From the NCBI GenBank assembly GCA_038063635.1, contig JBBTUS010000006.1, positions 13,500-77,499 on the forward strand: a stretch of 64,000 bases of DNA. Direction: 5' to 3'. Positions within the stretch are counted from its first letter, which is position 1; every line of letters starts with the position of its first letter. Source of the DNA: Patescibacteria group bacterium (GTDB taxonomy: Bacteria > Patescibacteriota > Minisyncoccia > Phycocordibacterales > UBA9973). The notes beneath the pieces were generated by a model. The model saw only the letters and a program-made list of their open reading frames with translations. It did no database searches and was not told where the DNA came from. Below, piece by piece: positions 35,779 through 50,387 of the stretch. The translations under genes and the position numbers were made by a program.

Positions 35779-36873
35779 TTATATTCCTTCTTTTTTAAGC
35801 TGTTCTATAATCTCACGAGATTTGTGAGAAAGCTTGTTGGGAAGTTTAATATTTAATTTAATCAATAAATCTCCACGTTTTGTTTTTGAAACAGGCACAC
35901 CTTTGCCGCGCACGCGAAGTATTTCATTTATGGAAACACCTTCTGGAATGGTAACTTTTATTTCTCCATCTAAAGTTTGAATTGGATACTCCGTGCCAAG
36001 CAGCGCTTCAGAAAGTTTTAAATTTAGATTCATTACAAGGTCATTTCCATCTCTCTTAAATATTGAATGTGGCACAACATTTATTTTTATATAAAGATCC
36101 CCGATTGTTCCATTTTTTACAGCTTCTCCCATGCCACTCATGCGAATCATTTCTCCGTTACGAATTCCGGCAGGTATTGAAATTGATATTTCTTCTTCGC
36201 GACGCAATACTCCTGCGCCCTTGCAATGAGAACAAATTTCTTTTGGAATTTCTCCCACGCCTAAGCATTCATTGCAGAGTTTTGTACTTGAAATATTTCC
36301 AAAAATAGTTCTTTTTGCTTCGCGAATTTTTCCTTGTCCATTGCAAGTTTTGCAAGTTTGCGTTTTTGTACCTTCCTTGGCTCCGGAACCGCCACAAATA
36401 CTGCACTTAGATATTTTAGTAATTAAAACTTTTCTAGTAACGCCAAAGATGGAATCAGAAAAAGAAATTTGAATCTCCGTTGAAATATCGCGTCCACGAC
36501 GTGTTTCATATCTTTGTTCTCCGTTTCCTCCAGTAAAGAAATCGCTAAAAATGTCATTTAAATTTCCAAAATCAAATTCTGAACCAGAACCATTTTGAAA
36601 ACCGCTGAAATCAAAACCGCCGAATCCGCCTTGTTGGTATCTAGCGCCTCCGCCTTGATTTATATTTTTAAACCCAGCTCCAAATTGGTCATATTTTGAA
36701 CGCTTAGAGTCATCAGAAAGCACCTGATAAGCTTCATTTGTTTCTTTAAACTTAGCTTCGTTGCCACCTTTCTTGTCTGGATGATATTTGTGCGCTAACT
36801 TATAAAAAGCCTTTTTGATTTCATCTTTTGACGCATTTTTATTTACACCCAATGTATTATAATAATCTTTCAT
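35779..36873 (-). CDS. dnaJ: chaperone DnaJ
   Basis: The J domain is DYYNTLGV...HPDK. A G/F region follows, then four CxxCxGxG zinc-finger repeats and a C-terminal domain. Confidence 0.9.
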   Translation of the reverse strand: MKDYYNTLGVNKNASKDEIKKAFYKLAHKYHPDKKGGNEAKFKETNEAYQVLSDDSKRSKYDQFGAGFKNINQGGGARYQQGGFGGFDFSGFQNGSGSEFDFGNLNDIFSDFFTGGNGEQRYETRRGRDISTEIQISFSDSIFGVTRKVLITKISKCSICGGSGAKEGTKTQTCKTCNGQGKIREAKRTIFGNISSTKLCNECLGVGEIPKEICSHCKGAGVLRREEEISISIPAGIRNGEMIRMSGMGEAVKNGTIGDLYIKINVVPHSIFKRDGNDLVMNLNLKLSEALLGTEYPIQTLDGEIKVTIPEGVSINEILRVRGKGVPVSKTKRGDLLIKLNIKLPNKLSHKSREIIEQLKKEGI

Positions 36874-36997: not shown

Positions 36998-38524
36998 TTA
37001 TATCATGGGTTCTGCTTCCTGTGAAGCTTTATTTGCCTTCAACGCTTCTTTTGAAACACCTGATTCAACCTCATCGGTTCTTTCTTCGTCTTCTTCGTAT
37101 TCCTCTTGCACTTTTCTCTTTGTTTTTCCTTCAATTATCGTCTTTTCTTCCGCGCTTCTTATAATTGTTGCTTCTTCTTCAGCGATAAGTCTAGCTGCAT
37201 CATGTTTTGATATAGAATATTTTCTGTGAGATGCAGAAATAATATCTTCTCGATAAGAAGGATGCGTAGGCGGTAGTACTCTCAAAGTTTCCGCGGAAAA
37301 TGGGTCATATGATTCTCCGTCAATCGTCATTTTTACATAAATTTCTCCAACCGCTAGATTGATTAAATCTTTTATGTCAAAAACTGGAGCAAATTCCGGT
37401 TTCATTTTAATCGCATCTTCTCCGCCAATTCTAAAAGCAATAATACTGCCACAGTTACCAAGCACTGCTTGATGTACTTTAGTAATAATCTGACCGACAT
37501 ACTGATGCGCTATAGTTAAATTTAGCGCATATTTTCTAGCTTCTGATAAAATATTTTCAAAAGTTTGCGTAACTACATTTTGAAACTCGTCTACATATAA
37601 GTAAAAATCCGTACGGTCTTTTTCCGGAATAGCCGCGCGCTCCATTCCTGCTTGTTTTATTTTAGTCAGGAATATTGAACCAAGAAAACTGGAATTTTCT
37701 TCCCCAAGGCGGCCCTTGGAAAGATTAATCAGAATTATTTTTTCTTCGTTCATTAATTTACTTATATCTATTTTATTTTGTTTCTGTCCAAAGATATTTC
37801 TAAGCAATGGGTCGGATAAAAATTGTCCGAGTTTATTTACAAGCGGAATAATAGCATCAGTATCAAATTTTTCAGACCAATCGGCGAATTCAATAGCGAA
37901 GAATCTTTTAACCATGTCGTCTGTAATATATTCAACAACTTTTTGCCTATAATTTCTGTCTGTCAGCATTGAAATCATCCCGCGCATGGTTGCATGCGGA
38001 TAATCAAGCAAGGCTAAACACGTAAAACGAAAAACGTGTTCAAGACGAGGTGTCCAATTGGCTCCGAATTGTTTTTGAAAAACCTCAATAAGACCTTGAG
38101 TAAGTTGAAACTTAAACATCGGGTCCACGTTCGCCAGTGGATTAAATGAAGCTGGATATTCAAGGTCTGTAGGGTCAATAATGCACACGTCTTCAACGCG
38201 TTCTTTTGGTATGTAGTCTAAAATAGCATCAATAACGTCTCCGTGCGGATCAATAAAACACAAGCCATGATTATATGTTATGTCTTGACGCATAAAAAGT
38301 TCAAGTAGTTTACTTTTTCCTACACCGGATTTTCCAATAACATAAAGATGTCTTCTGCGGTCAATACGCTTTATGCCGAAAATAAATTTCTTTTCTTCCA
38401 GAGCTGCCACATAATTCGTACGGCCAATAAAAGAAACCTCCTCTGGATTAACTTTTCCAAAAACAGGAAGTTCTGGCGGAGGAGGAGCATATTTAATTAT
38501 CTGCACTCGATTTGGCTTTGGCAT
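36998..38524 (-). CDS. soluble TraD/TrwB/VirD4-like P-loop ATPase (FtsK/HerA superfamily; paralog 1)
   Basis: GKSGVGKS is the Walker A, followed by IDPHGD. YLYVDEFQN is the Walker B and LTIAHQY is present. It has no N-terminal TM. It is a paralog of 42514..44763. Confidence 0.65.
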   Translation of the reverse strand: MPKPNRVQIIKYAPPPPELPVFGKVNPEEVSFIGRTNYVAALEEKKFIFGIKRIDRRRHLYVIGKSGVGKSKLLELFMRQDITYNHGLCFIDPHGDVIDAILDYIPKERVEDVCIIDPTDLEYPASFNPLANVDPMFKFQLTQGLIEVFQKQFGANWTPRLEHVFRFTCLALLDYPHATMRGMISMLTDRNYRQKVVEYITDDMVKRFFAIEFADWSEKFDTDAIIPLVNKLGQFLSDPLLRNIFGQKQNKIDISKLMNEEKIILINLSKGRLGEENSSFLGSIFLTKIKQAGMERAAIPEKDRTDFYLYVDEFQNVVTQTFENILSEARKYALNLTIAHQYVGQIITKVHQAVLGNCGSIIAFRIGGEDAIKMKPEFAPVFDIKDLINLAVGEIYVKMTIDGESYDPFSAETLRVLPPTHPSYREDIISASHRKYSISKHDAARLIAEEEATIIRSAEEKTIIEGKTKRKVQEEYEEDEERTDEVESGVSKEALKANKASQEAEPMI

Positions 38525-38603: not shown

Positions 38604-40343
38604 TTAATACACTTCCTGTTGATAACACTTTTCACAATATATTATTTCGGGTCGGTTGGGAGCGTAGGATGTTTCAAATTCTACACTGCATTTTCCTTTA
38701 TGTTCATGGTTTTCTTTATCGCACATGCAAGACCTATGCCAAAGTTTCATTGGATTTCGTTGTTTTAATCTTTGATAATGTCTGCAGTTTGGGCAAAATC
38801 TTGGTAAAGCAATATTATTTTTTCTCAAAAAATTTAATTCATCTTTTATGATGCGATAAGCTTGCGTACATAAAGTTAACTCACTGCCATTATTGGGACA
38901 AGCTATAGTTTCATTTAGAATATCTTCTTTTACATCTTGAATATGATTTGGCAAATCGTTTGATTTTAACGTAGTTTTATATTCTTTCTTTAGAGGTTCT
39001 CTAAAAAAATATCCTTCTTCCGTTATTTCTTTTTTGGTTTTTGGAAAATATTCTTGGGCAATTGTTTCATTGTAGGAGAATGGAGATAATTCGCTTGGGA
39101 AAAATTCACCATATTTATATACTCTGCCTTTACTATCTACATAAGGCATATCGTTCATATGTTTTATTATTTTAGGAACTAATTCTTCATATTCTTCTTT
39201 TGTATATTTTTTATTCAAAATACAATATTCCCCTTTTCTTATTCCAATACAACCAAATAAATTTTTCGAGTTATAACACATATAAGTATAATTGGTATCC
39301 AAACAACTGTGGGTTAATATTGAAAAATGTTGATTAAACGCTTTTATTCCCGTATCAACCCCCTCATACAACAAAGAAGCGCTAGCCCCAAAACCATAAC
39401 AATCATAATTATTTTCTGCCCAACCTCCGTGAGCTGAAAATTTTGTATCCTTGTTGTCTCCATAAATATCAAAAGATTGTTTGGTATTTTTTGAATTCAT
39501 AATATTATCTCCGGTACTATCTGAAGATTTTATTATATTGACATATTTATTAGGAAATTTTAAAACAAAGTCAGTATATTTATTTTTAAAATCAGATAAA
39601 ATTTTATAATTTCCAAAATCTAGATTCTTTTTTATTTTTAAATACTCTTCTTTGGAATATTGTTTGTTAAAAACACAGTATTTTTTGTTATGTAAATTAA
39701 TACAACCTATGCAATCTTGGCAATTCACGCAATTTTTCAAAAAATAACAGTTTATAGATTGACCTGAATTATAAGAAAAATGAGTTTGAAACAAAGAATC
39801 AGAAAGTATGTCTTCATAACATAATTCGGATTTTACAATAGAATATGTGTCAACGCAGTTTTTTAAACTAGATGCGCCTTGAGAATAAAGAACGTCTTCA
39901 TTTAAATAGGAAGCATAAACAAGATAACAATTTTTACAATCAGCATTATGATTGCCATATGGAAAATTTACACAATTAGTATTGCCAACATTGGCTAAAG
40001 GCACTTTTAATAATAATTCTTTATATTGTTCGAAGAATGGCTTACTAAAATCATAATCTTTTCCATAAGAAGCAGCGTCCCAATCATCTCCCCACCAAAT
40101 ATCATGATCATAAACTTTTCCCTTAAATTCAGGGTTAAACATCGCTATTATTGATTTATTTGTTTTGTCACAAGTTCTTTTAAAGAGAGCTCTTTCATTT
40201 CTCCAAGTTAGCCTTCTTATCATCCTGCATTCCGGACAAAAAGTCGGAGGCGGAACTTTTATTTTCTCATAGAAATTAAAATCTTCCGGCTCTATTATAA
40301 AGTCTTTTTGGCAATTTTGACATTGTTGAATTTTTTTTTGCAT
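38604..40343 (-). CDS. large cysteine-rich zinc-ribbon-containing protein (family not recognised; paralog 1 of 3)
   Basis: At 579 aa it has more than 40 Cys. The N-terminus is CQNCQKDFIIEPEDFNFYEKIKVPPPTFCPECR. The C-terminus LPRFCPNCRHYQRLKQRNPMKLWHRSCMC...YCEKCYQQEVY is related to it. Internal repeats are YC[VI][FL]NK[QK]Y[ST]KEEY. Confidence 0.6.
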   Translation of the reverse strand: MQKKIQQCQNCQKDFIIEPEDFNFYEKIKVPPPTFCPECRMIRRLTWRNERALFKRTCDKTNKSIIAMFNPEFKGKVYDHDIWWGDDWDAASYGKDYDFSKPFFEQYKELLLKVPLANVGNTNCVNFPYGNHNADCKNCYLVYASYLNEDVLYSQGASSLKNCVDTYSIVKSELCYEDILSDSLFQTHFSYNSGQSINCYFLKNCVNCQDCIGCINLHNKKYCVFNKQYSKEEYLKIKKNLDFGNYKILSDFKNKYTDFVLKFPNKYVNIIKSSDSTGDNIMNSKNTKQSFDIYGDNKDTKFSAHGGWAENNYDCYGFGASASLLYEGVDTGIKAFNQHFSILTHSCLDTNYTYMCYNSKNLFGCIGIRKGEYCILNKKYTKEEYEELVPKIIKHMNDMPYVDSKGRVYKYGEFFPSELSPFSYNETIAQEYFPKTKKEITEEGYFFREPLKKEYKTTLKSNDLPNHIQDVKEDILNETIACPNNGSELTLCTQAYRIIKDELNFLRKNNIALPRFCPNCRHYQRLKQRNPMKLWHRSCMCDKENHEHKGKCSVEFETSYAPNRPEIIYCEKCYQQEVY

Positions 40344-40448
40344 ATGTTTAAAAATTTTTATGCTTCCAAATTTTAACTCGAAATTTTATAGTTTTCCATA
40401 TAATTGATAAGGTGTATATAAAATATTCTAGTTTTAATTTTATTTTTT

Positions 40449-42224
40449 TCATAGAAATTCAGCTTGATAACATTTTTCGCAATATACAATTTCTTTTCGG
40501 TTATTATTAATCGCTGTTTCAAATTCATTTTGGCATGGATTTTCTGCGTGAAAATGCCCAATGGTATTTTTATATTCTTTATTTTCTGATTCTACACCAT
40601 TACACATGCATTTTCTATGCCAGAGTTTTGGCGGATTAACCATTTTTAACCGTTCATAATACCGGCAATTAGGACATAAATGGGGCAAAGCTAGCCTCAT
40701 AGATTGATAAAATTTTAACTCGTCTGGTAAAATACGAAAAGCTGTCGTGCATTGTTCATTGCAATTACCTTTATGTTCACATTCAATAACTTCATTTAAT
40801 ATGGACTCGGTAACATCGTTAATATGATCAGGTAAATTTTCTGGTTGAATGGTTATTTTATAATCTCTTGTAATTGAATCACGCCAATAAAATCCTTGTT
40901 TTAACGCCTCTTCTTTTGTAAGAGGAAAATATTTATTTGCCCATGTTTCATTATATGCCCATAAAGAAAGTTCAGACGGATAAAATTCTCCATACTTATA
41001 GATTCTTCCCTTTTTATCAACATAAGGCATATCGTTCATATGTTTTTTAATTTTAGGAATTAATTTTTCGTATTCTTCTTTTGTATATTGTTTGTTTAAA
41101 ATACAGTATTTTTTTTGCTTTAGCCTAACACAGCCAAAAAGATTAGCGCCACCATAAATATTCTCGGAATATTCAACATCTATAACATTATTGCTCCCAC
41201 GACAAAAAAAACTTCGCTGTGATTGAGTGCTTCCATTTACTTCGTATAAAAGCTCTGAGGTATCCCCTCCAAAAGTAATATCATAACTATCTTTTAATAA
41301 AAGCCCGCAAGTAAAAATATTTTTGCAATTTTCTACACCTTCAAGAGTAATAAAACAGTTTTTACAATTTTTAGTATTTTGAAGACCATCACCGCTTACA
41401 TTATATGAGTTTATGACAATAGAAAATCGTCTTGGTGTCTTATAATAAAGTTCCATAAATTTTTCTTTCGCTTTTTGTATAACTTTATAGCTTCCTAAAT
41501 CCCATTTAGCTATTTGTTTCTTATATTCTTCTTTTGTATATTGAACATTAAAAATATTGTGTTTTTGATTTCTTAAATTTATACAGCCAAAGCAATTTGA
41601 ACATCCTATACAATAAAAAAGGAAAGATGAGTCAAGACACTCATCCGAAAAATAAGTAAATTTTGTATTATAGACTCCAGTTGAGTTTATGGTATTGTAT
41701 ACATGATCAGCATTCCAAATAACATCAGAATCCATAGAATCGCGAGAAAAAAGTGGAGCTTGACAATAATAAGAATTAATAGATTGAAAACCGCCAAAAA
41801 CAAAAGTGCAGTTTTTGCAACGAACATTTCCATGGCAATATTTATTATTAGTACAATTTCTTGAATTTGTCCCCTGTGACGGAACAATTTTTTGTAGTTC
41901 ATATAATTGTTGGAAAAATGGCTTATTAAAATCATAATCTCTACCATATAGAGTTCCATCCCAATCATCTTTCCACCAACACGGAGAACAATAAACGACA
42001 AAAGGAGTTTCAGGAGCAAATAAACTTACAATATTTTCTCCACATTTATCACACTTATCTTTATATAAAGCACGTTCTTCACGATAAGCTAAACGTCGAA
42101 TTAGTCTGCACTCCGGACAAAAAGTCGGTGGCGGAACCTTTATTTTTTCATAAAATAAAAAATCGTCTGGCTCGATTATAAAGTCTTTTTGGCAATTCTG
42201 ACAGTTTCTAGTTTCATTTTTCAT
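40449..42224 (-). CDS. large cysteine-rich zinc-ribbon-containing protein (paralog 2 of 3)
   Basis: At 591 aa its N-terminal 70 aa are about 70% identical to paralog 1. The C-terminus is LPHLCPNCRYYERLKMVNPPKLWHRKCMC...YCEKCYQAEFL. Confidence 0.6.
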   Translation of the reverse strand: MKNETRNCQNCQKDFIIEPDDFLFYEKIKVPPPTFCPECRLIRRLAYREERALYKDKCDKCGENIVSLFAPETPFVVYCSPCWWKDDWDGTLYGRDYDFNKPFFQQLYELQKIVPSQGTNSRNCTNNKYCHGNVRCKNCTFVFGGFQSINSYYCQAPLFSRDSMDSDVIWNADHVYNTINSTGVYNTKFTYFSDECLDSSFLFYCIGCSNCFGCINLRNQKHNIFNVQYTKEEYKKQIAKWDLGSYKVIQKAKEKFMELYYKTPRRFSIVINSYNVSGDGLQNTKNCKNCFITLEGVENCKNIFTCGLLLKDSYDITFGGDTSELLYEVNGSTQSQRSFFCRGSNNVIDVEYSENIYGGANLFGCVRLKQKKYCILNKQYTKEEYEKLIPKIKKHMNDMPYVDKKGRIYKYGEFYPSELSLWAYNETWANKYFPLTKEEALKQGFYWRDSITRDYKITIQPENLPDHINDVTESILNEVIECEHKGNCNEQCTTAFRILPDELKFYQSMRLALPHLCPNCRYYERLKMVNPPKLWHRKCMCNGVESENKEYKNTIGHFHAENPCQNEFETAINNNRKEIVYCEKCYQAEFL

Positions 42225-42513: not shown

Positions 42514-44763
42514 TTACTCTAGTATTTTTTTTAATACATCTTCCGGCACTTCACGAATTGTTCCCGAAGAAGAAATAGGGTTTTGTGTTTTTGGGTTTTC
42601 TTCTTTTTTGATAGGTATTTCTTCTTTCTTTTTTATCTCTTCCTTTACTTCTTTGGAAACTTCAGGCGATTCAGCTCCGTTAGATTTAGCTGAAATGAAA
42701 TTTTTTAATTTATCCATATCTTCCCTGCTTGCAGATCTATCTTTTGACGGAGAACTGGATGTTGGTTGCGTATTTTTTAATTCATTTAGAGAGATTGAAG
42801 GCGTTTCTTTTTCTATAGGTTTTTCTTCTTTATTTGTTTGAGAAGATGAAAAAACCTTATTTTCAGAAAGAGTTTTGTTTAAAATTTCTCTTAAAGCTAT
42901 ATTTTCTTTGGGTTTTTCCCCGCCTGCCTGCCCGACACGTTGACGCGAGTCATGCGGGCGGGCATTAGCTGTGCTAAAAGCATTGCGGTCAGGTTTTTGC
43001 GTTTGATTTACAAATTTATTTTTAATTGGTGCATATTGCTGTTTATCTCTTGGTTGTGGATTTGAAAATGAAGCTTTTTTATCAAAAACTCTTTTAATCG
43101 CCGAAAATATTCCCGGTCTTCTTATTGCTTCGTCCGGATGTTGGATATGTATATCAACTCTTTCTGGATATCTTTCTTCTCGGGCTCTTTCTATATTATT
43201 GGTATAAACTTCTTTTTTTTCAAATTCTATTCCTAAATCAGATAATGGCTTATAAAACTTTACTTCATCTTGTCTTACTTGGCTCATTGACCCTTTTATA
43301 GGCTTTAATTCTCCAGATTTCATTTTTGCTATGCAATCCCTGCAATACACTGGACGTCCTTTTTCTGGCTTAAAAGGCACAGTTGTTTCTTTTTTACAAA
43401 TAGAACATTCAGCGGGAAATTTTTCTACCTCACTAGCTTCATTTTCATTTCCAAGAGACATTCCACTCCAATTGTTTATTTCTCGTTCTACAACTTCTTT
43501 TGATCTGCAATATAAATCACGAGAAGATTTTATAACTTCTTCCTCTGTTTCTTTATTGCCTTTTGCCATTGGAGGTATTGTTCTAGCTGAAAAAGGTCTT
43601 GAAGTTACACCGTCTATCATTAATTTTAAATATATTTTATAGTTTGGAAGATTAACAATATCTTGAGGAGTAAATTCCGGGTCAAATTCTTTTTCTAAAA
43701 ATTCCGCATCATCGGCGCCGCAACGAAAAACTATCATCGTGCCAACGTTGCCAAAAACAGCATCACGAACTGCAGAACTTTTATCCGAAACAAGCTGGGC
43801 GGTATATTGATGAGCAACCGTCAGATTTAATCTGTATTTTCTGGCTTCAGATAAAATACCGGCAAAAGCGTCCGTCACAAAATTTTGAAATTCATCCACA
43901 TAAAGATAAAAATCTTTTCTTTCATCTTCTGGAATACGCACACGTTCCATCGCCGCAAGTTGAATTTTAGTAATAATCATACCACCCAAAAGCGAAGAAT
44001 TGTCTTCACCGATGCGCCCTTTGGAAACATTTACAAGAAAAATTTTTCCCTCATTCATTATGTCAAAAATGTTTATTGTGCTTTTTGACTGCCCTACAAC
44101 ATTTCGAATAATGGAAGTAGAAAGAAATTGACCTACTTTATTTTGGATAGGAGCAATAGCTTCATTTCTAAATTTGTCTTGCCAAGCCTCATATTCGTGA
44201 ATCCAAAAAGCTTTAATAACTGGGTCTTTTAGATTTGAAATTATTTTTTGGCGATAATCTTTGTCCACTAGCATTCTAGGTATGCCAAGAAGCGTAGTCC
44301 CAGGAGTATCTAGAAGAGCTAAAATAGCATTATTTAAAATGTATTCCATTCGAGCGCTCCAAGCATTGGCCCAAATTTTGGTAAATATTCCCATAAGACC
44401 TGAAGCGACCAAATGCTTGTATTTAGGGTCAATAAGTTCTAGAACATTAAAACCAACATGATATTCTGTGTCTGCCGGATTAAAATAAACAACATCTTTC
44501 ATGCGATTTGGAGGAATTGAAGAAAGAATTGCTTCAACATTTTCTCCGTGCGGGTCAACCATACATACACCATCGCCATTTTTGATGTTCTGAATAATCA
44601 TATTAAACATGAGCACAGATTTACCTGTTCCTGATTTTCCAAGAATATAAACATGCTGGCGCCTATCTTTGCGCTTTATGCCAAAAAGCTGATTTTTATC
44701 TCTATAAGTAGAATACCCAATATATGTAATATCTTTATTTAAAGGCAAATCTAAGGCGTTCAT
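42514..44763 (-). CDS. soluble TraD/TrwB/VirD4-like P-loop ATPase (paralog 2) with a 300-aa low-complexity C-terminal extension containing a CxxC...CxxC zinc ribbon
   Basis: GKSGTGKS, VDPHGE, YLYVDEFQN and LTVAHQY are present. The tail is Lys/Glu-rich and carries the family-2 repeat insertion. Confidence 0.65.
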   Translation of the reverse strand: MNALDLPLNKDITYIGYSTYRDKNQLFGIKRKDRRQHVYILGKSGTGKSVLMFNMIIQNIKNGDGVCMVDPHGENVEAILSSIPPNRMKDVVYFNPADTEYHVGFNVLELIDPKYKHLVASGLMGIFTKIWANAWSARMEYILNNAILALLDTPGTTLLGIPRMLVDKDYRQKIISNLKDPVIKAFWIHEYEAWQDKFRNEAIAPIQNKVGQFLSTSIIRNVVGQSKSTINIFDIMNEGKIFLVNVSKGRIGEDNSSLLGGMIITKIQLAAMERVRIPEDERKDFYLYVDEFQNFVTDAFAGILSEARKYRLNLTVAHQYTAQLVSDKSSAVRDAVFGNVGTMIVFRCGADDAEFLEKEFDPEFTPQDIVNLPNYKIYLKLMIDGVTSRPFSARTIPPMAKGNKETEEEVIKSSRDLYCRSKEVVEREINNWSGMSLGNENEASEVEKFPAECSICKKETTVPFKPEKGRPVYCRDCIAKMKSGELKPIKGSMSQVRQDEVKFYKPLSDLGIEFEKKEVYTNNIERAREERYPERVDIHIQHPDEAIRRPGIFSAIKRVFDKKASFSNPQPRDKQQYAPIKNKFVNQTQKPDRNAFSTANARPHDSRQRVGQAGGEKPKENIALREILNKTLSENKVFSSSQTNKEEKPIEKETPSISLNELKNTQPTSSSPSKDRSASREDMDKLKNFISAKSNGAESPEVSKEVKEEIKKKEEIPIKKEENPKTQNPISSSGTIREVPEDVLKKILE
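42913..42997. repeat. GC-rich palindromic element, family 2 (copy 1), in-frame inside the C-terminal tail of ATPase-2
   Basis: It is about 88% identical over about 85 nt to 50265-50349. The termini CCTGCCCG...CGGGCAGG form an inverted repeat. It encodes NAFSTANARPHDSRQRVGQAGGEK. Confidence 0.75.
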
Positions 44764-44851: not shown

Positions 44852-46792
44852 TTATTTTTTAGGAGCTTCCTCTTCCGGCTTTTCTTTTGCCTCGTCTGTA
44901 GACGGACCTTCTTTATATTCTGCATCGCGAACTTTAGAATCTTTTTCTTCAGAAGTTGCTTGTTCTGATTTTGCTGAAGAACTGGTTTCATCTACTTTTG
45001 CCATAGCTTCGCCAATTTTAGACATCTCACTGGAAAGTTCTTCGGTGGCTTTTTTAATTGCTTCAGAATCCGTTCCGTCTTTTACTTCTTTCAAAGAAGT
45101 TATTTTAGCATTTACCCCATCCTTAATATCCGATGGGATTTTTGCTTCGTTATCTTTCAATGCTTTTTCCGCAGTGTAAATAATCATTTCCGCGGTATTT
45201 TTTATATCAACAATTTCTTTTTTCTTTTTATCTTCCTCTGCATGAAGTTCAGCATCGGCCTGCATTTTCTTAATATCTTCTTCTTTTAATCCAGAACTTG
45301 CTTCAATTTTAATTGATTGAGCTTTTCCGGAAGCTTTATCTTTTGCCGTAACATTTAAAATTCCATTTGCATCAACATCAAAAGTAACTTCAACTTGTGG
45401 AATACCGCGAGGTGCTGGCGGAATTCCATCTAATATAAATCTTCCTAAACTCTTGTTATCGGAAACCATTGGACGTTCTCCTTGCACAATATGAATTTCA
45501 ACAGAAGTTTGATTGTCGGCTGCAGTTGAAAAAATTTGAGATTTAGAAGATGGAATAGTTGTGTTTCTTTCAATTAATTTTGTAGAAACTCCTCCAAGCG
45601 TTTCAATACCGAGTGAAAGAGGTATAACGTCCAAAAGCAACACATCACGAACTTCACCGGCCAAAACTCCAGCTTGAACCGCAGCTCCTAAAGCCACAAC
45701 TTCATCGGGATTTATAGACATATTCGGTGTTTTTCCAAAAAGATTTTTCACCGCATCAACAATCGCCGGCATTCTTGTTTGTCCGCCAACCATTATAATT
45801 TCGTTTATTTCATTCATTTTAAACGGCGATGCTTCAAGAGCTTTTTTTGTTATTTCAATTGAACGGTCAATATATTCTTTTGTTAATGATTCCAGAGTTG
45901 CTCGAGACATTTTTAAAAGCAAATGTTTTGGTCCGGAAGAATCAGAAGTGATAAATGGAACATTTATTTCCGTTTCCATTGTTGTAGAAAGTTCATGCTT
46001 TGCTTTTTCCGCAGCTTCTTTTAATCTCTGATGAGCCAGCGGGTCTTTTCTGACATCAATGCCAGATTCTTTTTTATATTCCTCGGCTATCCAAGTAATA
46101 ATTTTTCTATCAATATCGCCTCCACCCATATGTGAATCTCCGTCAGTTGATTTTACTTCAATAATATCATCTCCAATTTCTAAAACTGAAACATCAAAAG
46201 TTCCGCCGCCAAAATCATAGACAACTATTTTTTCATTTTTCTTTTTATCAAATCCATAAGCCAGAGCTGCGGCTGTAGGCTCGTTTATAATACGTTTCAC
46301 GTCAAGTCCGGCAATCTGACCGGCATCTTTGGTTGCTTTTCTTTGAGCATCATTAAAATAAGCGGGAACAGTAATAACTGCTTCTGTTATTTTCTCGCCT
46401 AATTTTGTTTCAACATCTGTTTTAATTTTTTGCAAAATCATCGCTGAAATTTCTTCCGGACGATAAAATTTATCCAGCATTTTAACTTTTACGCCGCCAC
46501 TTTCACCAGCTTCAATTTTAAATGACGCAGTAACTTTATCTTTTTGCACTTCCGGGTCGTCGTATCTATGACCCATATAGCGTTTTATTTCTGAAATTGT
46601 ATTTTCCGGATTAGTAACTGCTTGCCTCTTTGAGAGAAGTCCGGTAATACGGTCACCATTTTTTGTAGTGGCTACTACAGAAGGCGTGGTGCGGTTGCCT
46701 TCTACGTTTTCAATAATTTTCGGTGCGCCTCCTTCAATAATTGCTACAGCCGAATTTGTTGTACCCAAATCTATACCTATTATTTTTGACAT
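44852..46792 (-). CDS. dnaK: chaperone DnaK (Hsp70)
   Basis: [23 protein letters not shown] and the rest of the Hsp70 signature set are present. Confidence 0.95.
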
Positions 46793-46953: not shown

Positions 46954-47475
46954 ATGTCAAGAAAAATGGATTATTCTAATAAGATATTAAAGATTTTGGC
47001 CGAAAAACCAGTTGTTTCAGTTGAATCAATAAAAAGTGAGGATCCTAAGAAAAATTATGCTTTTGCTCGTTCAATAAAAAATTTAGTTGAATCAGGATGC
47101 ATTGAAATGCTTCAGTCTGATAATCAAACTTATTTAAAAATAACTAAAAAAGGTAAAGGCAAATTAAATTGTATAAAACTAGAGGGTGAAGAAGCGCTTG
47201 TGTCTAATACTTGGGATGGATTTTGGAGAATTATAATTTTAGATATTCCCGAAAACAGAAAACCGGAACGCGAAGCATTGCGTTATCTTTTAAAGAAAGC
47301 GAATTTTATTTGCGTAAAAAATACCGTATGGATTTCTCCTTATCCTTACGAAAATCTTTTTACAAACATTAAAAAAGATTTAGGTTTGGGAACTGAACTA
47401 ATGATTATAGTGACAAACAAGCTGGATTCAGAAACAAATTCAGCATTTTTAAAAAATGTAAATAAAATTCAGTAA
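46954..47475 (+). CDS. putative transcriptional regulator (small PaaX-like: wHTH plus a PaaX_C-like domain), divergent from dnaK
   Basis: DGFWRIIILDIPENRKPEREALRYLLKKANFICVKNTVWISPYP resembles the PaaX C-terminal domain pattern. A TTGTCA-N17-TATATTATAAT promoter is upstream. Confidence 0.4.
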   Translation: MSRKMDYSNKILKILAEKPVVSVESIKSEDPKKNYAFARSIKNLVESGCIEMLQSDNQTYLKITKKGKGKLNCIKLEGEEALVSNTWDGFWRIIILDIPENRKPEREALRYLLKKANFICVKNTVWISPYPYENLFTNIKKDLGLGTELMIIVTNKLDSETNSAFLKNVNKIQ

Positions 47476-49160
47476 ATTTCTTTATTGTAACAACTTTCGC
47501 AATAAATTATTTCTTTTCGGTCTGGAGAATAACTTGTTTCAAATTCATTAGAACAACCTTCTTTCATGCATTTTCGGTGCCAAAGTTTGCGAGGCAGACG
47601 AATTGCAAAACGTTTTTTATATCTGCATTCTGGACAAAAATGCGGTAATGGAATATTTTCTTTTTTATAAAATGCTAATTCGTCTTTTGTTATATTATAA
47701 TTTTTTTTACATTTATCACACGCTAAAACAGCCATTAAAATTTCATCATTAATATCTTTAATATCATCTGGGATATTTTCTAGTTTAACGGTTTCTTTTC
47801 CAAAAATTCCCGGAATCTTATCTTCCCATTTCCACCCGCGAGAAAGAATAGTTTCTTTCTCTTCCGGCATATAATAATTTCCCTGAGTTTCGTTATAACA
47901 AACAGGAGAAATAGATGGTGGAAAAAATTCTCCATACTCCCCTGTTTTCTTCATATGTTCTATTATTTTTTCTTTCAATTCCAAATATTCTTCTTTTGAA
48001 TATTTTTTATTAAAAATCATATACTCCCCTTTTTTAATTGAAATACACCCAAAAAGGTTTTGACAATTCTGACAAGAGTCCGAATATTCTATATCTCTAT
48101 TGTCATAACAAAGATGACAAAATTTACTGTTATATAAACCTTTGCATCCGTGAATTTCATACGACAATTCCGTACCCCAACCCACATGATACAAATCCAT
48201 TGAAGATTTTAAGGAAACAGATGCGTAAATATTTTTTGTATCTTCAAGCATTTCCACATCAAAACTATTTATTGAATTCTTACTATTAAATATCATATTG
48301 CCGGTACAATTAATATTGCGTTCGCTTATCACGTAGCGATGAATAGAATCCTTAATCATTAAATCAAAAAATTCTTGTTTTAACTTCTCACGAACATTAT
48401 AAGAACCTAAATTATATTCTTTTATTTTTTCTAAATAAGCCTCACGAGAATATTGTTTATTTTTAAAAACATATTTTTTATTGCGCAAATTAGACGATAA
48501 AAAACAATCATTGCAGTTACGACAATCGTAACAATAATAGCAATTTACGCAATTTTCCAATAAAAAACCAAATTGGCATTGATATGATTTTCTTGAATCA
48601 ATACATTCATAAAGTTTTTCTCCGCTGTCATATATATAACTGCAATCCATGCAGTTTCTAGATTTCATTATCCAAGTTGAATAAAGTACATCTTCAGTAT
48701 TGAAACAGCTAAAAGATAAATAAGCATTTTTGTCATCTCCGGAATGATTGGCATAATCCGAATTAATGCTATTTTTACTCAAAAGGGCTACACGAGGAAC
48801 TTCAAGCTGTAATTCATGATATTGTTCAAAAAATGACCTGGAAAAATCAAAATCACGTCCATAAACAGCAGGGTCCCAGTTATCTCCCCACCAGCATTTC
48901 AAACAATAAACTTTTAATAATTTATTTGGAGAATAAACGGTAACAATGCTTTTATTGCACAAGTCGCAGTCTCGCCTATATAAAGTTCTTTCGTTTCGCC
49001 AAGCATAACGACGTTGTTGACGACAATTCGGACACCACAAAGGCGGTGGAACTTTTATTTTTTCATAAAAATCAAAATCTTCAGGTTCTATTGTAAAATC
49101 TTTTTTGCAATTCTGGCAATTTTTATTTTTCTGTTGTTGGCTCATTATATTCAAAGACAT
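47469..49160 (-). CDS. large cysteine-rich zinc-ribbon-containing protein (paralog 3 of 3), translationally coupled to grpE
   Basis: At 563 aa its N-terminus is CQNCKKDFTIEPEDFDFYEKIKVPPPLWCPNCR and its C-terminus is LPHFCPECRYKKRFAIRLPRKLWHRKCM...YCESCYNKEIY. Its start overlaps the grpE 3' end by 38 nt. Confidence 0.6.
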   Translation of the reverse strand: MSLNIMSQQQKNKNCQNCKKDFTIEPEDFDFYEKIKVPPPLWCPNCRQQRRYAWRNERTLYRRDCDLCNKSIVTVYSPNKLLKVYCLKCWWGDNWDPAVYGRDFDFSRSFFEQYHELQLEVPRVALLSKNSINSDYANHSGDDKNAYLSFSCFNTEDVLYSTWIMKSRNCMDCSYIYDSGEKLYECIDSRKSYQCQFGFLLENCVNCYYCYDCRNCNDCFLSSNLRNKKYVFKNKQYSREAYLEKIKEYNLGSYNVREKLKQEFFDLMIKDSIHRYVISERNINCTGNMIFNSKNSINSFDVEMLEDTKNIYASVSLKSSMDLYHVGWGTELSYEIHGCKGLYNSKFCHLCYDNRDIEYSDSCQNCQNLFGCISIKKGEYMIFNKKYSKEEYLELKEKIIEHMKKTGEYGEFFPPSISPVCYNETQGNYYMPEEKETILSRGWKWEDKIPGIFGKETVKLENIPDDIKDINDEILMAVLACDKCKKNYNITKDELAFYKKENIPLPHFCPECRYKKRFAIRLPRKLWHRKCMKEGCSNEFETSYSPDRKEIIYCESCYNKEIY

Positions 49161-49731
49161 TTACTTGAGCAACACGTATCACGTGATTATCAAGTTTATA
49201 TCCTTTTTGAACAACTTCACAAACTTTATGGTCTTCTTCTTTTTTATCAGTCGGTATTGCCTTTATTGATTGGTGAATATTAGGGTCAAAATTCTCACCT
49301 GCCTCGCCTATCGGTTTTACTCCATATTCTTCAAAGATTGTATTTATTTGAGTATAAATATGTTCAACTCCCCTTCTCCAACTTTCATCTACTTTTTCCC
49401 AAGCTTCTTTGTTTGAAAACGCCATATTAAAACTGTCTAAAACACTCAAAAAACTAAAAAGAATACGCTCGCGCACTGCTTCTGAAAAATTTATTTTTCT
49501 ATCTTCTTCTTGTTTTTTATAATTGGTAAATTCTGCTCGCTCTTTTTGCCAGCCAGTCAAATATTCTTCTTTCTCAGTCTTGCACGCTTTTAAATCAACC
49601 CTCAATTTTTTAAGGGTTTTCTTTAAATCTTCCTCTCCGTTTTCATTAAATTCAAATTCAAGAACTTCAGATTCGTTTTTTTCTTCCGTTGGTTCCGAAA
49701 CTTCAGATTTTTCTTCTTCATTATCTGCCAT
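49123..49731 (-). CDS. grpE: nucleotide exchange factor GrpE
   Basis: A coiled coil is followed by the GrpE motif RAEFTNYKKQ and the C-terminal beta domain. Confidence 0.85.
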   Translation of the reverse strand: MADNEEEKSEVSEPTEEKNESEVLEFEFNENGEEDLKKTLKKLRVDLKACKTEKEEYLTGWQKERAEFTNYKKQEEDRKINFSEAVRERILFSFLSVLDSFNMAFSNKEAWEKVDESWRRGVEHIYTQINTIFEEYGVKPIGEAGENFDPNIHQSIKAIPTDKKEEDHKVCEVVQKGYKLDNHVIRVAQVNVFEYNEPTTEK

Positions 49732-49880: not shown

Positions 49881-50387
49881 CTAACGTTTGCTCCATTGTG
49901 GGGCTTTTCTTGCCTTTTTAAGTCCGAATTTTCTTCGCTCTTTAGCCCTTCCATCACGCTTTAAAAATCCTAATGTTTTTAATTTTGCGCGAAGTTCGCC
50001 ATCTGATTCCACTAAAGCTCTAGTAAGCCCATGGCGTACTGCTTCAGATTGAGAGTGAATTCCACCTCCAGAAACTCTTGCTTCAATGCTCCATTTTGAC
50101 CCAGGCTTACCCTTAGTAATCGGGTCTGTAATCAAGCGACGCTGTTCTTCTGTTTTAAAATAATCTTTTGCATCTTTTCCATTTACAACAAAACTTGTTT
50201 TAGCAGATTCATAAATACGAACTCTGGCCGTAGAAGTTTTTCTTCTGCCTATTGCTTCAATATATTTTTCCCCGCCTGCCTGCCCGACACGCTGACGCGA
50301 GTCATATGGGCGAGCATCAGCTATGCTGAAAGCATTGCGGGCAGGTTTTGTTGTTGTTTTGTTGTCATCTATCATAATATTATTCAT
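49881..50387 (-). CDS. rpsI: 30S ribosomal protein S9 with a 40-aa N-terminal extension
   Basis: The core from YIEAIGRRKTSTARV to the C-terminal KKARKAPQWSKR is canonical S9. The extension contains the family-2 repeat. Confidence 0.9.
   Translation of the reverse strand: MNNIMIDDNKTTTKPARNAFSIADARPYDSRQRVGQAGGEKYIEAIGRRKTSTARVRIYESAKTSFVVNGKDAKDYFKTEEQRRLITDPITKGKPGSKWSIEARVSGGGIHSQSEAVRHGLTRALVESDGELRAKLKTLGFLKRDGRAKERRKFGLKKARKAPQWSKR
50265..50349. repeat. GC-rich palindromic element, family 2 (copy 2), in-frame at the 5' end of rpsI
   Basis: It encodes NAFSIADARPYDSRQRVGQAGGEK, the same peptide frame as copy 1. No in-frame start codon exists between the element and the conserved S9 core. 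Confidence 0.75.

Follow-up and report, generated by a model that had tools for sequence, protein, structure and literature searches.

The closest described relatives of the proteins analysed here are small zinc-finger proteins that combine zf_Tbcl (PF13451) with zf_Tbcl_2 (PF23477 / TIGR04272). They are stand-alone proteins of <100 aa with unknown function, exemplified by a 93-aa ORF on MT837064.1 and by the small zinc-binding proteins of M. mazei, whose CxxC-x17-CxxC domain has been shown experimentally to bind zinc and for which a role in transcription was put forward as a starting hypothesis (PMC12704099). A second point of comparison is provided by the VirD4/TraD P-loop ATPases and their substrates. 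In Patescibacteria, where T4SS are widespread, 5,713 VirD4-like homologues have been found in 2,918 genomes, of which 148 are located near virB4; exaptation of these homologues has been suggested, with no partner known, and the homologue of the type IV coupling protein (T4CP) in Ca. S. epibionticum is not essential for epibiotic growth (PMC12102498).

The window (the whole stretch of 64,000 nucleotides that was analysed) contains three paralogous Cys-rich ORFs, all on the minus strand and located as the initial annotation had given them (Table 1). They can be aligned end to end, with paralogs B and C 46-47% identical to A (40-46% for all pairs by tblastn), and no fourth copy or fragment was found in the window by tblastn. 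The N- and C-terminal motifs described earlier are present in all three with minor deviations, such as EPDDF in paralog B, and RRY and a variant C-terminal motif in paralog C. Cys makes up 5.2-6.2% of their residues, compared to 1.17% over all ORFs in the window that reach 150 aa, and no other ORF of the window is as rich in Cys. Their totals of 30, 35 and 35 Cys leave 16, 17 and 19 between the terminal modules, where more than 30 had been claimed. We rate the family as new and never characterised, with zinc-finger heads flanking a narrow beta-helix.

Table 1. Features of the Cys-rich paralogs and of the surrounding dnaK cassette (positions in the window).
Feature	Position	Strand	Remarks
Paralog A	38604..40343	-	579 aa; second N-terminal finger degenerate
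N-terminal head, paralog A aa 1-82	40098..40343	-	hhalign to zf_Tbcl + zf_Tbcl_2 protein
Acidic helical linker, paralog A aa 83-115	39999..40097	-	conserved; WWxDxWD, YGxDYDFxxPFFxQ
Predicted beta-helix unit 1 + helical cap, paralog A aa 116-262	39558..39998	-	periodicity, hhalign, DSSP
Predicted beta-helix unit 2 + helical cap, paralog A aa 263-399	39147..39557	-	homologous to unit 1
Acidic alpha/beta domain, paralog A aa 400-478	38910..39146	-	conserved; YGEFFPxxxSPFxYNETxAxxYFP
C-terminal head, paralog A aa 479-579	38607..38909	-	duplicate of N-terminal head (hhalign)
Paralog B	40449..42224	-	591 aa; four terminal zinc fingers all intact
Paralog C	47469..49160	-	563 aa; all four fingers intact
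dnaJ	35779..36873	-	cassette flank, downstream
Downstream VirD4/TraD-like ATPase	36998..38524	-	508 aa; Pfam/NCBIfam; soluble
ORF with two transmembrane helices	42233..42475	-	80 aa; between 749-aa ATPase and paralog B
Upstream VirD4/TraD/HerA-like ATPase	42514..44763	-	749 aa; Pfam/NCBIfam; soluble; recurrent array neighbour
dnaK	44852..46792	-	cassette flank, upstream
PaaX_M-domain putative regulator	46954..47475	+	conserved between grpE-side copy and dnaK
grpE	49123..49731	-	directly upstream of paralog C, overlapping

The most informative fact on the family, missed in the initial annotation, is its coupling to two VirD4-like ATPases in the dnaK operon. The ATPases match TrwB_AAD_bind and T4SS-DNA_transf, and weakly CedD, and contain Walker A and B motifs as well as a TraG-D_C region. 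They are 44% identical to each other, and no transmembrane segment was detected in either (maximum Kyte-Doolittle 19-residue hydropathy <1.2). The 749-aa ATPase has a zf_Tbcl_2 finger of its own (aa 448-482), present at every locus for which a Pfam annotation was returned, and a long low-complexity tail. The 508-aa ATPase is 80-91% identical to the corresponding proteins at the loci that were fetched; with a median of 83%, against 87% for DnaK and 50% for the best Cys-rich match, its conservation is on a par with that of DnaK. That the ATPases are much more conserved than the Cys-rich proteins would fit adaptors or cargo, and would equally fit unrelated genes at a shared insertion hotspot.

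Arrays of the family are preferentially located within a dnaK–ATPase–[array]–ATPase–dnaJ cassette. A VirD4-like ATPase is encoded at most ~8 kb away in 42 of the 80 loci found via the Cys-rich protein, and where both ATPase genes are present (20 loci) they enclose 0 to 5 Cys-rich genes, most commonly 2. Any other neighbour is shared by 7 loci at most. As the loci were mostly gathered with the family itself as bait, these frequencies are biased. Three loci were collected from the ATPase side; two of them have Cys-rich genes within ~9 kb, flanked by the two ATPase genes at one locus and located upstream of dnaK at the other. Locus L087 carries dnaK–ATPase–ATPase–dnaJ, and its surroundings out to 9 kb are free of family members. 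At many loci, the flank that was fetched around an array contains no ATPase gene. The association is a preference and not a strict rule.

The position of the arrays between conserved ATPase genes in the dnaK operon makes the family good candidate partners of these ATPases. We tentatively favour the possibility, to which we give rather less than an even chance, that the paralogs are stabilised by zinc and serve the flanking pair as adaptors or cargo. They would act together with two soluble, VirD4/TraD-like hexameric ATPases, the conserved heads serving as a common handle that could dock on the ATPase and/or on nucleic acid, and one candidate docking ATPase bears the same finger type as the heads. 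The variable beta-helix would confer specificity on each paralog, and an array might offer one conserved motor a choice of exchangeable adaptors or cargo. Similar to VirD4/TraD and their substrates, the genes adjoin those of P-loop ATPases and several diverged candidate clients are found per motor. In contrast to T4CP systems, the ATPases of the window are soluble and form a conserved pair in the dnaK operon, not with virB4 or a relaxase, and the candidate clients carry no recognisable T4SS signal.

Both heads are divergent zf_Tbcl + zf_Tbcl_2 (CxxC-x17-CxxC) finger pairs, with the two fingers in the same order as in the small proteins and, likewise, an Arg/Lys-rich segment behind the second knuckle of finger 1. 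Unlike the small proteins, the paralogs carry the module twice, at both ends of ~580 aa. The family alignment matched the 93-aa protein (itself scoring 88.7 bits to zf_Tbcl and 72 bits to zf_Tbcl_2) with an hhalign probability of 96.6% (E 6e-10, 82 columns), and the C-terminal module matched the N-terminal one with 97.8% (E 9e-13), in agreement with the earlier suggestions that the terminal modules are zinc fingers and are related to each other. Against Pfam, the isolated N and C modules reached 16-18.5 bits, under the gathering cut-offs of 24 and 27 bits; whole paralogs gave E-values of only 0.025-0.66 for zf_Tbcl/zf_Tbcl_2, and sub-threshold zf_Tbcl matches were seen in 23 of 48 family members.

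The N head of paralog A consists of a zf_Tbcl-like finger (C8, C11, C36, C39), an Arg-rich helix with the invariant residues R40, R43, R44, R48 and R51 (counterparts in the C head: R521, R525 and R537), and a zf_Tbcl_2-like finger. In paralogs B and C the latter has the exact CxxC-x17-CxxC spacing (C58-x2-C61-x17-C79-x2-C82); paralog A has T, D and I where C61, C79 and C82 would be. Across the family these three Cys are present or absent together (phi 0.99-1.0), being lost in approximately two thirds of the paralogs, and the Cys pairs 8/11, 36/39 and 570/573 show a phi of 1.0. Each of the C-head Cys (482, 492, 517, 520, 539, 552, 570 and 573 in paralog A) is 88-99% conserved. Since the pairs co-vary in an all-or-none manner, the two ends, and these alone, behave as metal sites in the alignment, and the heads of the family probably bind zinc.

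The heads carry a net positive charge (on average +3 and +4), the rest of the protein being acidic. Together with the invariant arginines, this raises the alternative that the heads grip DNA or RNA and that the rigid beta-helix acts as a spacer in nucleic-acid binding or bridging. The paralogs would then serve the ATPases as FtsK/HerA/TraD-type DNA or RNA translocases, for example to process scavenged DNA or to handle chromosomes or RNA. The ATPases do match DNA-binding and DNA-translocating families, and the transcription hypothesis for the M. mazei proteins points in the same direction. However, the arginines may be structural, no nucleic-acid-binding family was matched, the charge of the whole protein is near neutral or negative, and up to ~19 diverged copies with variable helix surfaces are hard to explain in this manner; we regard nucleic-acid binding as the primary role as rather unlikely. 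This alternative overlaps with the adaptor or cargo model and differs from it in having nucleic acid as the ligand.

The centre of the paralogs looks like a duplicated narrow beta-helix of ~12 residues per coil with a Cys/Ser-lined core, as judged from sequence periodicity and a structural model (AF2, paralog A: pLDDT 81.5, pTM 0.85). The internal duplication noted previously (YCVFNKQYSKEEY / YCILNKKYTKEEY) is real: the repeated stretch caps each of two homologous units, ~110-140 aa long, which hhalign aligns to each other with a probability of 99.3% (E 1e-20). Autocorrelation in unit 1 peaks at lags 12 and 24, consistent with a 12-residue periodicity, and the lattice and periodicity signal of unit 2 is weaker. 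Cys are confined to residues 1 mod 3: they make up 29% of the positions on this period-3 lattice against 0.00 off it (Cys + Ser 51% against 6%; small residues 64% against 16%). In the centre, Cys and Ser replace one another freely, and the loss of one Cys does not go along with the loss of another (phi about 0). Their occurrence at every third position and their independent loss suggest that Cys and Ser line the core and do not form zinc ribbons. The picture of one long multi-zinc-ribbon protein with ribbon-type Cys in the middle is not supported, metal-site behaviour being seen at the ends. The bodies of the helices vary, in contrast to the conserved termini and helix caps, and the exposed beta-helix faces diverge strongly among paralogs. 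The acidic alpha/beta domain behind unit 2 (paralog A) did not match any known family.

A comparable coil is found in the antifreeze protein of Tenebrio molitor (1ezg), which likewise has ~12 residues per coil and a small residue, presumably pointing inward, at every third position; the ryegrass IRI protein (3ult), budworm AFP (1m8n) and curli CsgA (8c50) are other narrow beta-solenoids to which the centre can be likened, and the matches of the paralogs to all of these were not significant. The likeness concerns the fold class, not function, and ice binding is not expected of the paralogs. In contrast to the antifreeze beta-helix, the paralogs are predicted to be cytoplasmic, their helix is duplicated, the unit caps are helical and zinc fingers form the flanks. 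A disulfide ladder is not implied, as the Cys are unpaired and do not co-vary.

Unit 1 of paralog A closes with C205-x2-C208-x2-C211-x2-C214 and NLxNKxYCxFNxQYxKEEY, and in paralog C residues 204-219 contain six successive Cys at CxxC spacing. The four Cys of the C205-C214 run are 83-93% conserved but are lost independently (phi -0.05 to 0.01), which makes it unlike an obligate cluster site. A radical SAM or ferredoxin-type Fe-S protein, which would show a CxxxCxxC or CxxCxxCxxxCP motif, is not indicated: there was no Pfam or NCBIfam match, and the Cys spaced by two residues do not depend on each other. The conservation of the run could also be read in favour of structural beta-helix or metal/Fe-S storage proteins that pile up in a permissive insertion hotspot and have no functional link to the ATPases. 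In some genomes nothing separates the two ATPase genes, and arrays are found elsewhere too. Against such a passive accumulation, to which we give only a small chance, are the independent loss of the run, the proximity to ATPases at 42 of 80 loci, which is far beyond expectation for genomes of ~1 Mb, and the presence of the same finger type in the upstream ATPase.

No signal peptide or transmembrane segment was detected in the paralogs, consistent with their predicted cytoplasmic location. It is unlikely, though conceivable, that they are secreted effectors whose termini are recognised by the VirD4-like ATPases as type IV coupling proteins, to be delivered via a T4SS to a host while DnaK, DnaJ and GrpE maintain translocation competence. 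The neighbourhood does combine T4CP homologues and chaperones, some arrays adjoin an ABC exporter gene, T4SS are widespread in the phylum, and the expansion and divergence of the arrays, with their variable surfaces, are reminiscent of an effector repertoire. Yet both ATPases lack the canonical N-terminal membrane anchor of T4CPs, and the adjacent 80-aa ORF, which could encode a small membrane protein, is probably outside the system since it is not conserved in related loci. The window contains no T4SS genes, and the published figures for virB4 proximity and the dispensability of the Ca. S. epibionticum homologue likewise speak against this route. The C-terminal 100 residues of paralog A are modelled as a confidently folded zinc finger (AF2, pLDDT 86-92), not as a disordered charged signal, and the independent, unpaired Cys argue against a disulfide-stabilised extracellular protein.

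Paralog C begins within the end of grpE (38 nt overlap), and the embedding of the genes in grpE–dnaK–dnaJ, together with their high thiol content, could point to proteostasis or redox factors of a heat-shock regulon. The paralogs would work as Cys- and Zn-rich holdases or as thiol/zinc switches, much like DnaJ or Hsp33, or else would be the clients or adaptors of an ATPase serving as an unfoldase next to DnaK; ClpB is a precedent for a hexameric ATPase co-operating with DnaK. Like the DnaJ zinc finger (PF00684), whose gene is a neighbour, the paralogs are Cys-rich and predicted to bind zinc. Nevertheless, PF00684 gave no match at E <=1 (the DnaJ of the window, used as control, gave 2.2e-13), CXXCXGXG is absent, and there is no likeness to Hsp33 or any chaperone family. 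Moreover, chaperones seldom diverge so rapidly or vary in copy number as widely as seen here (0 to at least 19), and certain copies are remote from dnaK, making a chaperone-type role improbable in our view.

Searches of Pfam, NCBIfam, the PDB and by fold returned no whole-protein match, and neither a radical SAM nor a DnaJ-like finger, phage or structural protein identity, each named earlier as a potential explanation of the Cys pattern, emerged. The only PHROG match was a family of unknown function (8e-5, paralog C only). PADLOC had no match for the Cys-rich proteins, and no relative was found on IMG/VR viral contigs. The large, conserved family that had been supposed does exist: it comprises at least 4,648 clusters at 50% identity, and all named members are called "hypothetical". 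Nearly every member carries the label Patescibacteria or that of a lineage within it, taxon labels being generic or doubtful at many loci; the family belongs to the ultra-small Patescibacteria (Paceibacteria/'Parcubacteria').

The arrays, ranging from a single copy to at least 19 diverged ones, are as variable as might be expected of diversified sensors for anti-phage or anti-MGE defence, grouped around HerA/TraD-like ATPases, and the ATPases have weak PADLOC matches (mad8 5e-15, HerA 2e-8). We consider defence very improbable, given that the Cys-rich proteins have no counterpart in PADLOC or on viral contigs, and that the ATPases are core genes in a housekeeping operon, conserved as strongly as DnaK, the pair being uniform across all Paceibacteria, unlike patchy defence islands. 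In addition, each window paralog is 63-73% identical to a counterpart in another genome (up to 89% for paralog A) compared to 40-46% to its sisters. With closer counterparts elsewhere than next door, the paralog lineages appear to be old and not the product of a recent arms-race expansion. Some copies lie at a distance from dnaK, and RAAC4_OD1_1 has a lone copy amid polyamine genes.

Paralogs A, B and C are three ORFs located on the minus strand, with exactly the coordinates proposed in the initial annotation. Full-length alignment of B and C with A gives 46-47% identity and tblastn between paralog pairs 40-46%; no further copies or fragments of the family were detected in the window by tblastn. 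With 30 (A), 35 (B) and 35 (C) cysteines per protein, i.e., 5.2-6.2% against a background of 1.17% across the window ORFs of 150 aa or more, they are the top three window ORFs in cysteine content. The region between the terminal modules had been credited with more than 30 further cysteines, but contains only 16, 17 and 19.

Coordinates (window positions) of the paralogs, the VirD4-like ATPases and other features of the locus
Feature	Length	Position	Strand	Description
ATPase508	508 aa	36998..38524	-	VirD4/TraD-like paralog, between dnaK and dnaJ
Paralog A	579 aa	38604..40343	-	ORF of the family
Paralog B	591 aa	40449..42224	-	ORF of the family
ATPase749	749 aa	42514..44763	-	VirD4/TraD-like paralog, between dnaK and dnaJ
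GC-rich repeat, copy 1	~85-116 nt	42882..42997	-	In frame, in the tail of ATPase749
PaaX_M protein	173 aa	46954..47475	+	Winged-helix + PaaX_M (Cas2-like)
Paralog C	563 aa	47469..49160	-	ORF of the family
GC-rich repeat, copy 2	~85-116 nt	50234..50349	-	In frame, in the ribosomal protein S9 ORF

A 48-sequence family alignment was split into blocks, which were compared with hhalign. The N-terminal block (aa 1-112; residue numbers are those of paralog A) matches the C-terminal block (aa 476-579) with a probability of 97.8% (E 9e-13), and the central blocks (aa 113-262 and 263-402) match each other with a probability of 99.3% (E 1e-20), in agreement with the relatedness of the terminal modules and the internal duplication noted initially. 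The domain order is therefore head, acidic helical linker, two successive beta units each followed by a helical cap, acidic alpha/beta domain, and a second head. The AlphaFold2 model of A has a mean pLDDT of 81.5 and a pTM of 0.85, with pLDDT values of 84-96 for the heads, the caps and the 400-480 domain, and of 54-70 for much of the beta units. The heads, the helix caps (NLFGC…YCILNKxYxKEEY) and the YGEFFP…YNET motif are highly conserved; the helix bodies are poorly conserved. Neither a signal peptide nor a transmembrane segment was found in the family protein.

With single family sequences, the matches to zf_Tbcl, zf_Tbcl_2 and TIGR04272 ('CxxC-x17-CxxC') in Pfam and NCBIfam are only faint. 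The single weak tblastn match in a phage collection, a 93-aa ORF, is a textbook case of zf_Tbcl (88.7 bits) and zf_Tbcl_2 (72 bits) and served as a bridge to Pfam: the family N module aligns with it over both fingers (hhalign probability 96.6%, E 6e-10). Sub-threshold zf_Tbcl matches occur in 23 of 48 family members, and finger 2 of B and C has the exact CxxC-x17-CxxC spacing. These profile comparisons show that the heads are of the zinc-finger type, homologous to zf_Tbcl plus zf_Tbcl_2. The CxxC-x17-CxxC domain binds zinc in small proteins of unknown function in M. mazei (PMC12704099).

Among 199 family sequences from related loci, C8, C11, C36 and C39 of the N head are 97-98% conserved, C58 83%, and the C-head cysteines (482, 492, 517, 520, 539, 552, 570 and 573) 88-99%. 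Only 37-38% of the sequences have C61, C79 and C82, always jointly (phi 0.99-1.0), an all-or-none behavior as expected of a single metal site. Paralog A is of the type that has lost this N-head finger 2, and the loss shows only a weak trend with position. Between the fingers lies an invariant Arg-rich helix (R40, R43, R44, R48, R51), of which the C head has a counterpart. Both heads carry a net positive charge, and the remainder of the protein is acidic.

The cysteines in the center do not form zinc ribbons, as was first assumed, but belong to a lattice of Cys and Ser at every third residue, the columns of which are independent. In unit 1 (aa 118-226), Cys makes up 29% of on-lattice residues and 0.00 of off-lattice residues, Cys and Ser together 51% vs 6%, and small residues 64% vs 16%, and the hydropathy autocorrelation has its maxima at lags 12 and 24; unit 2 has the same lattice, with register shifts. 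The central Cys columns vary independently, including C205, C208, C211 and C214 (83-93% conserved; phi -0.05 to 0.01), and a lost Cys is usually replaced by Ser; on these grounds metal or disulfide sites were rejected as the general explanation. Together, the spacing, the 12/24 periodicity and the independent columns point to a narrow beta-helix with coils of about 12 residues, in which small residues face inward and the predicted lining is of thiol and hydroxyl groups. This geometry, an approximately 12-residue coil with small residues pointing inward, is shared by the beetle antifreeze repeat TCTxSxxCxxAx. Treble-clef finger pairs flanking a thiol-lined 12-residue beta-helix would be an unusual design, which structural biologists and protein engineers may find interesting.

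The family is very large. At least 7,940 proteins are significant in a word-indexed search, among 8,000 scored candidates (the upper limit of the scoring), and an exhaustive profile search of 50%-identity clusters gives 4,648 matches at E ≤1e-3 and 2,033 at E ≤1e-30; the best 150 are nearly all 530-625 aa long, and a few are shorter and partial. Members are named 'hypothetical protein' throughout and carry no precomputed Pfam domain, and the whole protein has no match above cut-off in Pfam, NCBIfam, PHROGs or PADLOC. A role as defense sensors appears very improbable. Relatives are encoded in more than 543 stretches of a one-genome-per-species collection. Among the best 80 of these, many are labeled as Patescibacteria lineages (Nomura-, Staskawicz-, Brenner-, Ryan-, Jorgensenbacteria, Paceibacterota), about one third as 'Candidatus Saccharibacteria', a doubtful label, several only as 'bacterium' or 'uncultured bacterium', and one as Burkholderiales. 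The latter label ('Burkholderiales bacterium', locus L047) is probably a binning or taxonomy error, because the locus carries a typical Paceibacteria cassette. One family member (P0391, cluster of P0270) is labeled 'Oligoflexia bacterium'. No relatives were found in IMG/VR viral contigs or in plasmids.

We conclude that this is a very large new family in Patescibacteria with a defined modular architecture. The searchable literature on Cys-rich families of CPR bacteria, on PF13451 and on VirD4 together with DnaK contains no description of it, and a survey of CPR protein families refers to Parcubacteria-enriched families merely as 'primarily hypothetical'. At the profile level the heads belong to Pfam families of unknown function, and the predicted helix to a known fold class; the whole protein, its organization in arrays and the cassette that it forms with orphan T4CP-like ATPases correspond to nothing described, and we regard them as a new family or system. 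Thousands of members exist without a name, a Pfam model, or a solved or similar structure.

Related loci contain 1 to 8 full-length copies within approximately 18 kb, and in the first 44.6 kb of JALLOO010000001.1 there are at least 19, all distinct and full-length. Patescibacteria represent a large share of bacterial diversity and have tiny genomes, one of which spends at least 19 genes (~45 kb) on this family. Divergence within a locus (median identity 42%, maximum 62%) is as great as that between copies of different genomes (median 43%). The closest relatives of the window paralogs in other genomes share 70%, 73% and 63% identity in the fetched loci (89% for the closest relative of A in the protein database), above the 40-46% (tblastn) that they share with their own sister copies. 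As relatives elsewhere are closer than sister copies, the paralog lineages are old and maintained and do not stem from recent amplification.

The gene order on the minus strand is rpoA-rplQ-rplM-rpsI-grpE-C-dnaK, with the PaaX_M gene on the opposite strand between C and dnaK, followed by ATPase749-small transmembrane ORF-B-A-ATPase508-dnaJ. Housekeeping genes (aminoacyl-tRNA synthetases, DnaB, a PBP, peptidases) make up the remainder of the window. Both ATPases are P-loop proteins of the VirD4/TraD/HerA-like type (TrwB_AAD_bind, T4SS-DNA_transf, TraG-D_C, DUF87; NCBIfam TraD, CD1115), share 44% identity and lack a membrane segment; ATPase749 also has a genuine zf_Tbcl_2 finger (49.5 bits) and a long tail of low complexity. 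The small transmembrane ORF (80 aa, two transmembrane segments) is not conserved; it was considered as membrane anchor of the ATPase (a split coupling protein) and rejected, as such an ORF lies beside only 2 of 24 homologs, on either side.

A VirD4-like ATPase is encoded within approximately 8 kb in 42 of the 80 loci found with the family, and dnaK and dnaJ are each present in 19, frequencies that are biased by the fact that the loci were mostly baited with the family itself. Twenty loci have 0 (3 loci), 1 (4), 2 (9), 3 (2), 4 (1) or 5 (1) family genes between both ATPase genes; of the three loci fetched from the ATPase side, one has two family genes between the ATPase genes, another has one upstream of dnaK, and the third has none within 9 kb. 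No other partner gene recurs in more than 7 of the 80 loci (a CutA-like protein, an ABC exporter, RsmE and a transmembrane protein were examined). The association of family and ATPases is therefore preferential, not obligatory, with the family genes lying preferentially between two ultra-conserved genes for soluble VirD4-like ATPases in the dnaK operon. We consider it very unlikely that family and ATPases have no functional link. In some genomes, the ATPase genes are directly adjacent (dnaK-ATPase-ATPase-dnaJ).

ATPase508 is 80-91% (median 83%) identical to its counterparts in the fetched loci, where the median is 87% for DnaK, 75% for DnaJ and 50% for the best family match; its conservation is comparable to that of DnaK and above that of DnaJ. 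The ATPase pair looks like a case of 'orphan' coupling-protein homologs with a core function in Paceibacteria. A 2025 survey counted 5,713 VirD4-like homologs in 2,918 Patescibacteria genomes, hardly any of them beside the T4SS and only 148 near virB4, and could do no more than raise exaptation (PMC12102498); the window pair fits this 'orphan' population of about two per genome. The dnaK-ATPase-[array]-ATPase-dnaJ cassette offers concrete, testable partners for these ATPases.

We tentatively propose that the family proteins are adaptors or cargo of the flanking ATPase pair, a possibility to which we give somewhat less than even weight. The conserved heads would provide a common handle, and the variable helix faces might act as specificity element. 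That the proteins instead serve to bridge nucleic acids seems unlikely to us. They could also be T4SS effectors, but the ATPases are soluble, the C-terminus is folded in the predicted model and the genes are far from virB4, making this rather improbable. That they are heat-shock or redox factors, in this setting of chaperone genes, is in our opinion a poor prospect. Extending the adaptor or cargo proposal, and more doubtfully, Paceibacteria may possess a previously unrecognized cytoplasmic machine, in which two exapted VirD4-like ATPases, conserved at the level of DnaK and co-operonic with DnaK, DnaJ and GrpE, would use a genome-specific library (1 to >19 copies) of zinc-finger/beta-helix proteins as specificity adaptors or as cargo. 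It might function in interaction with the host or in handling macromolecules that have been scavenged, and such a machine would yield the first candidate partners for the 'orphan' T4CP homologs of Patescibacteria.

Several other features of these loci were observed. The PaaX_M protein, encoded just upstream of dnaK, is conserved in many related loci and may act as regulator of the grpE/dnaK operon. RAAC4_OD1_1 (loci L001/L006) has a lone family copy within a polyamine-biosynthesis cluster, flanked by saccharopine-dehydrogenase-like and Orn/DAP/Arg decarboxylase genes, and followed downstream by CN_hydrolase and agmatine deiminase; dnaK-dnaJ lies 6 kb away, and the flank yielded no ATPase. A gene of the ABC exporter type (~590 aa; ABC_membrane + ABC_tran) adjoins family genes in a minority of loci (L085, 2969..4756; L086, 2205..3980; plus 6 loci).

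The window also contains a GC-rich direct repeat, 81-83% identical between its two copies, in an AT-rich genome. The copy in the low-complexity tail of ATPase749 encodes the peptide RNAFSTANARPHDSRQRVGQAGGEK, and the other forms an N-terminal extension of approximately 30 aa of ribosomal protein S9 (RNAFSIADARPYDSRQRVGQAGGEK), which a related genome (L003) lacks in its S9 of 138 aa. The repeat has no match in Rfam, its fold z-scores are only -1.5 to -2.3, and the 87 fetched loci and an exact scan of metagenome contigs gave no further copies; possibly it is a small element that is tolerated in frame. At ~12.7-14.2 kb of the window, gene orientation changes from plus (left) to minus (right) at a peak of cumulative GC skew, so that genes converge there, as at a replication terminus.
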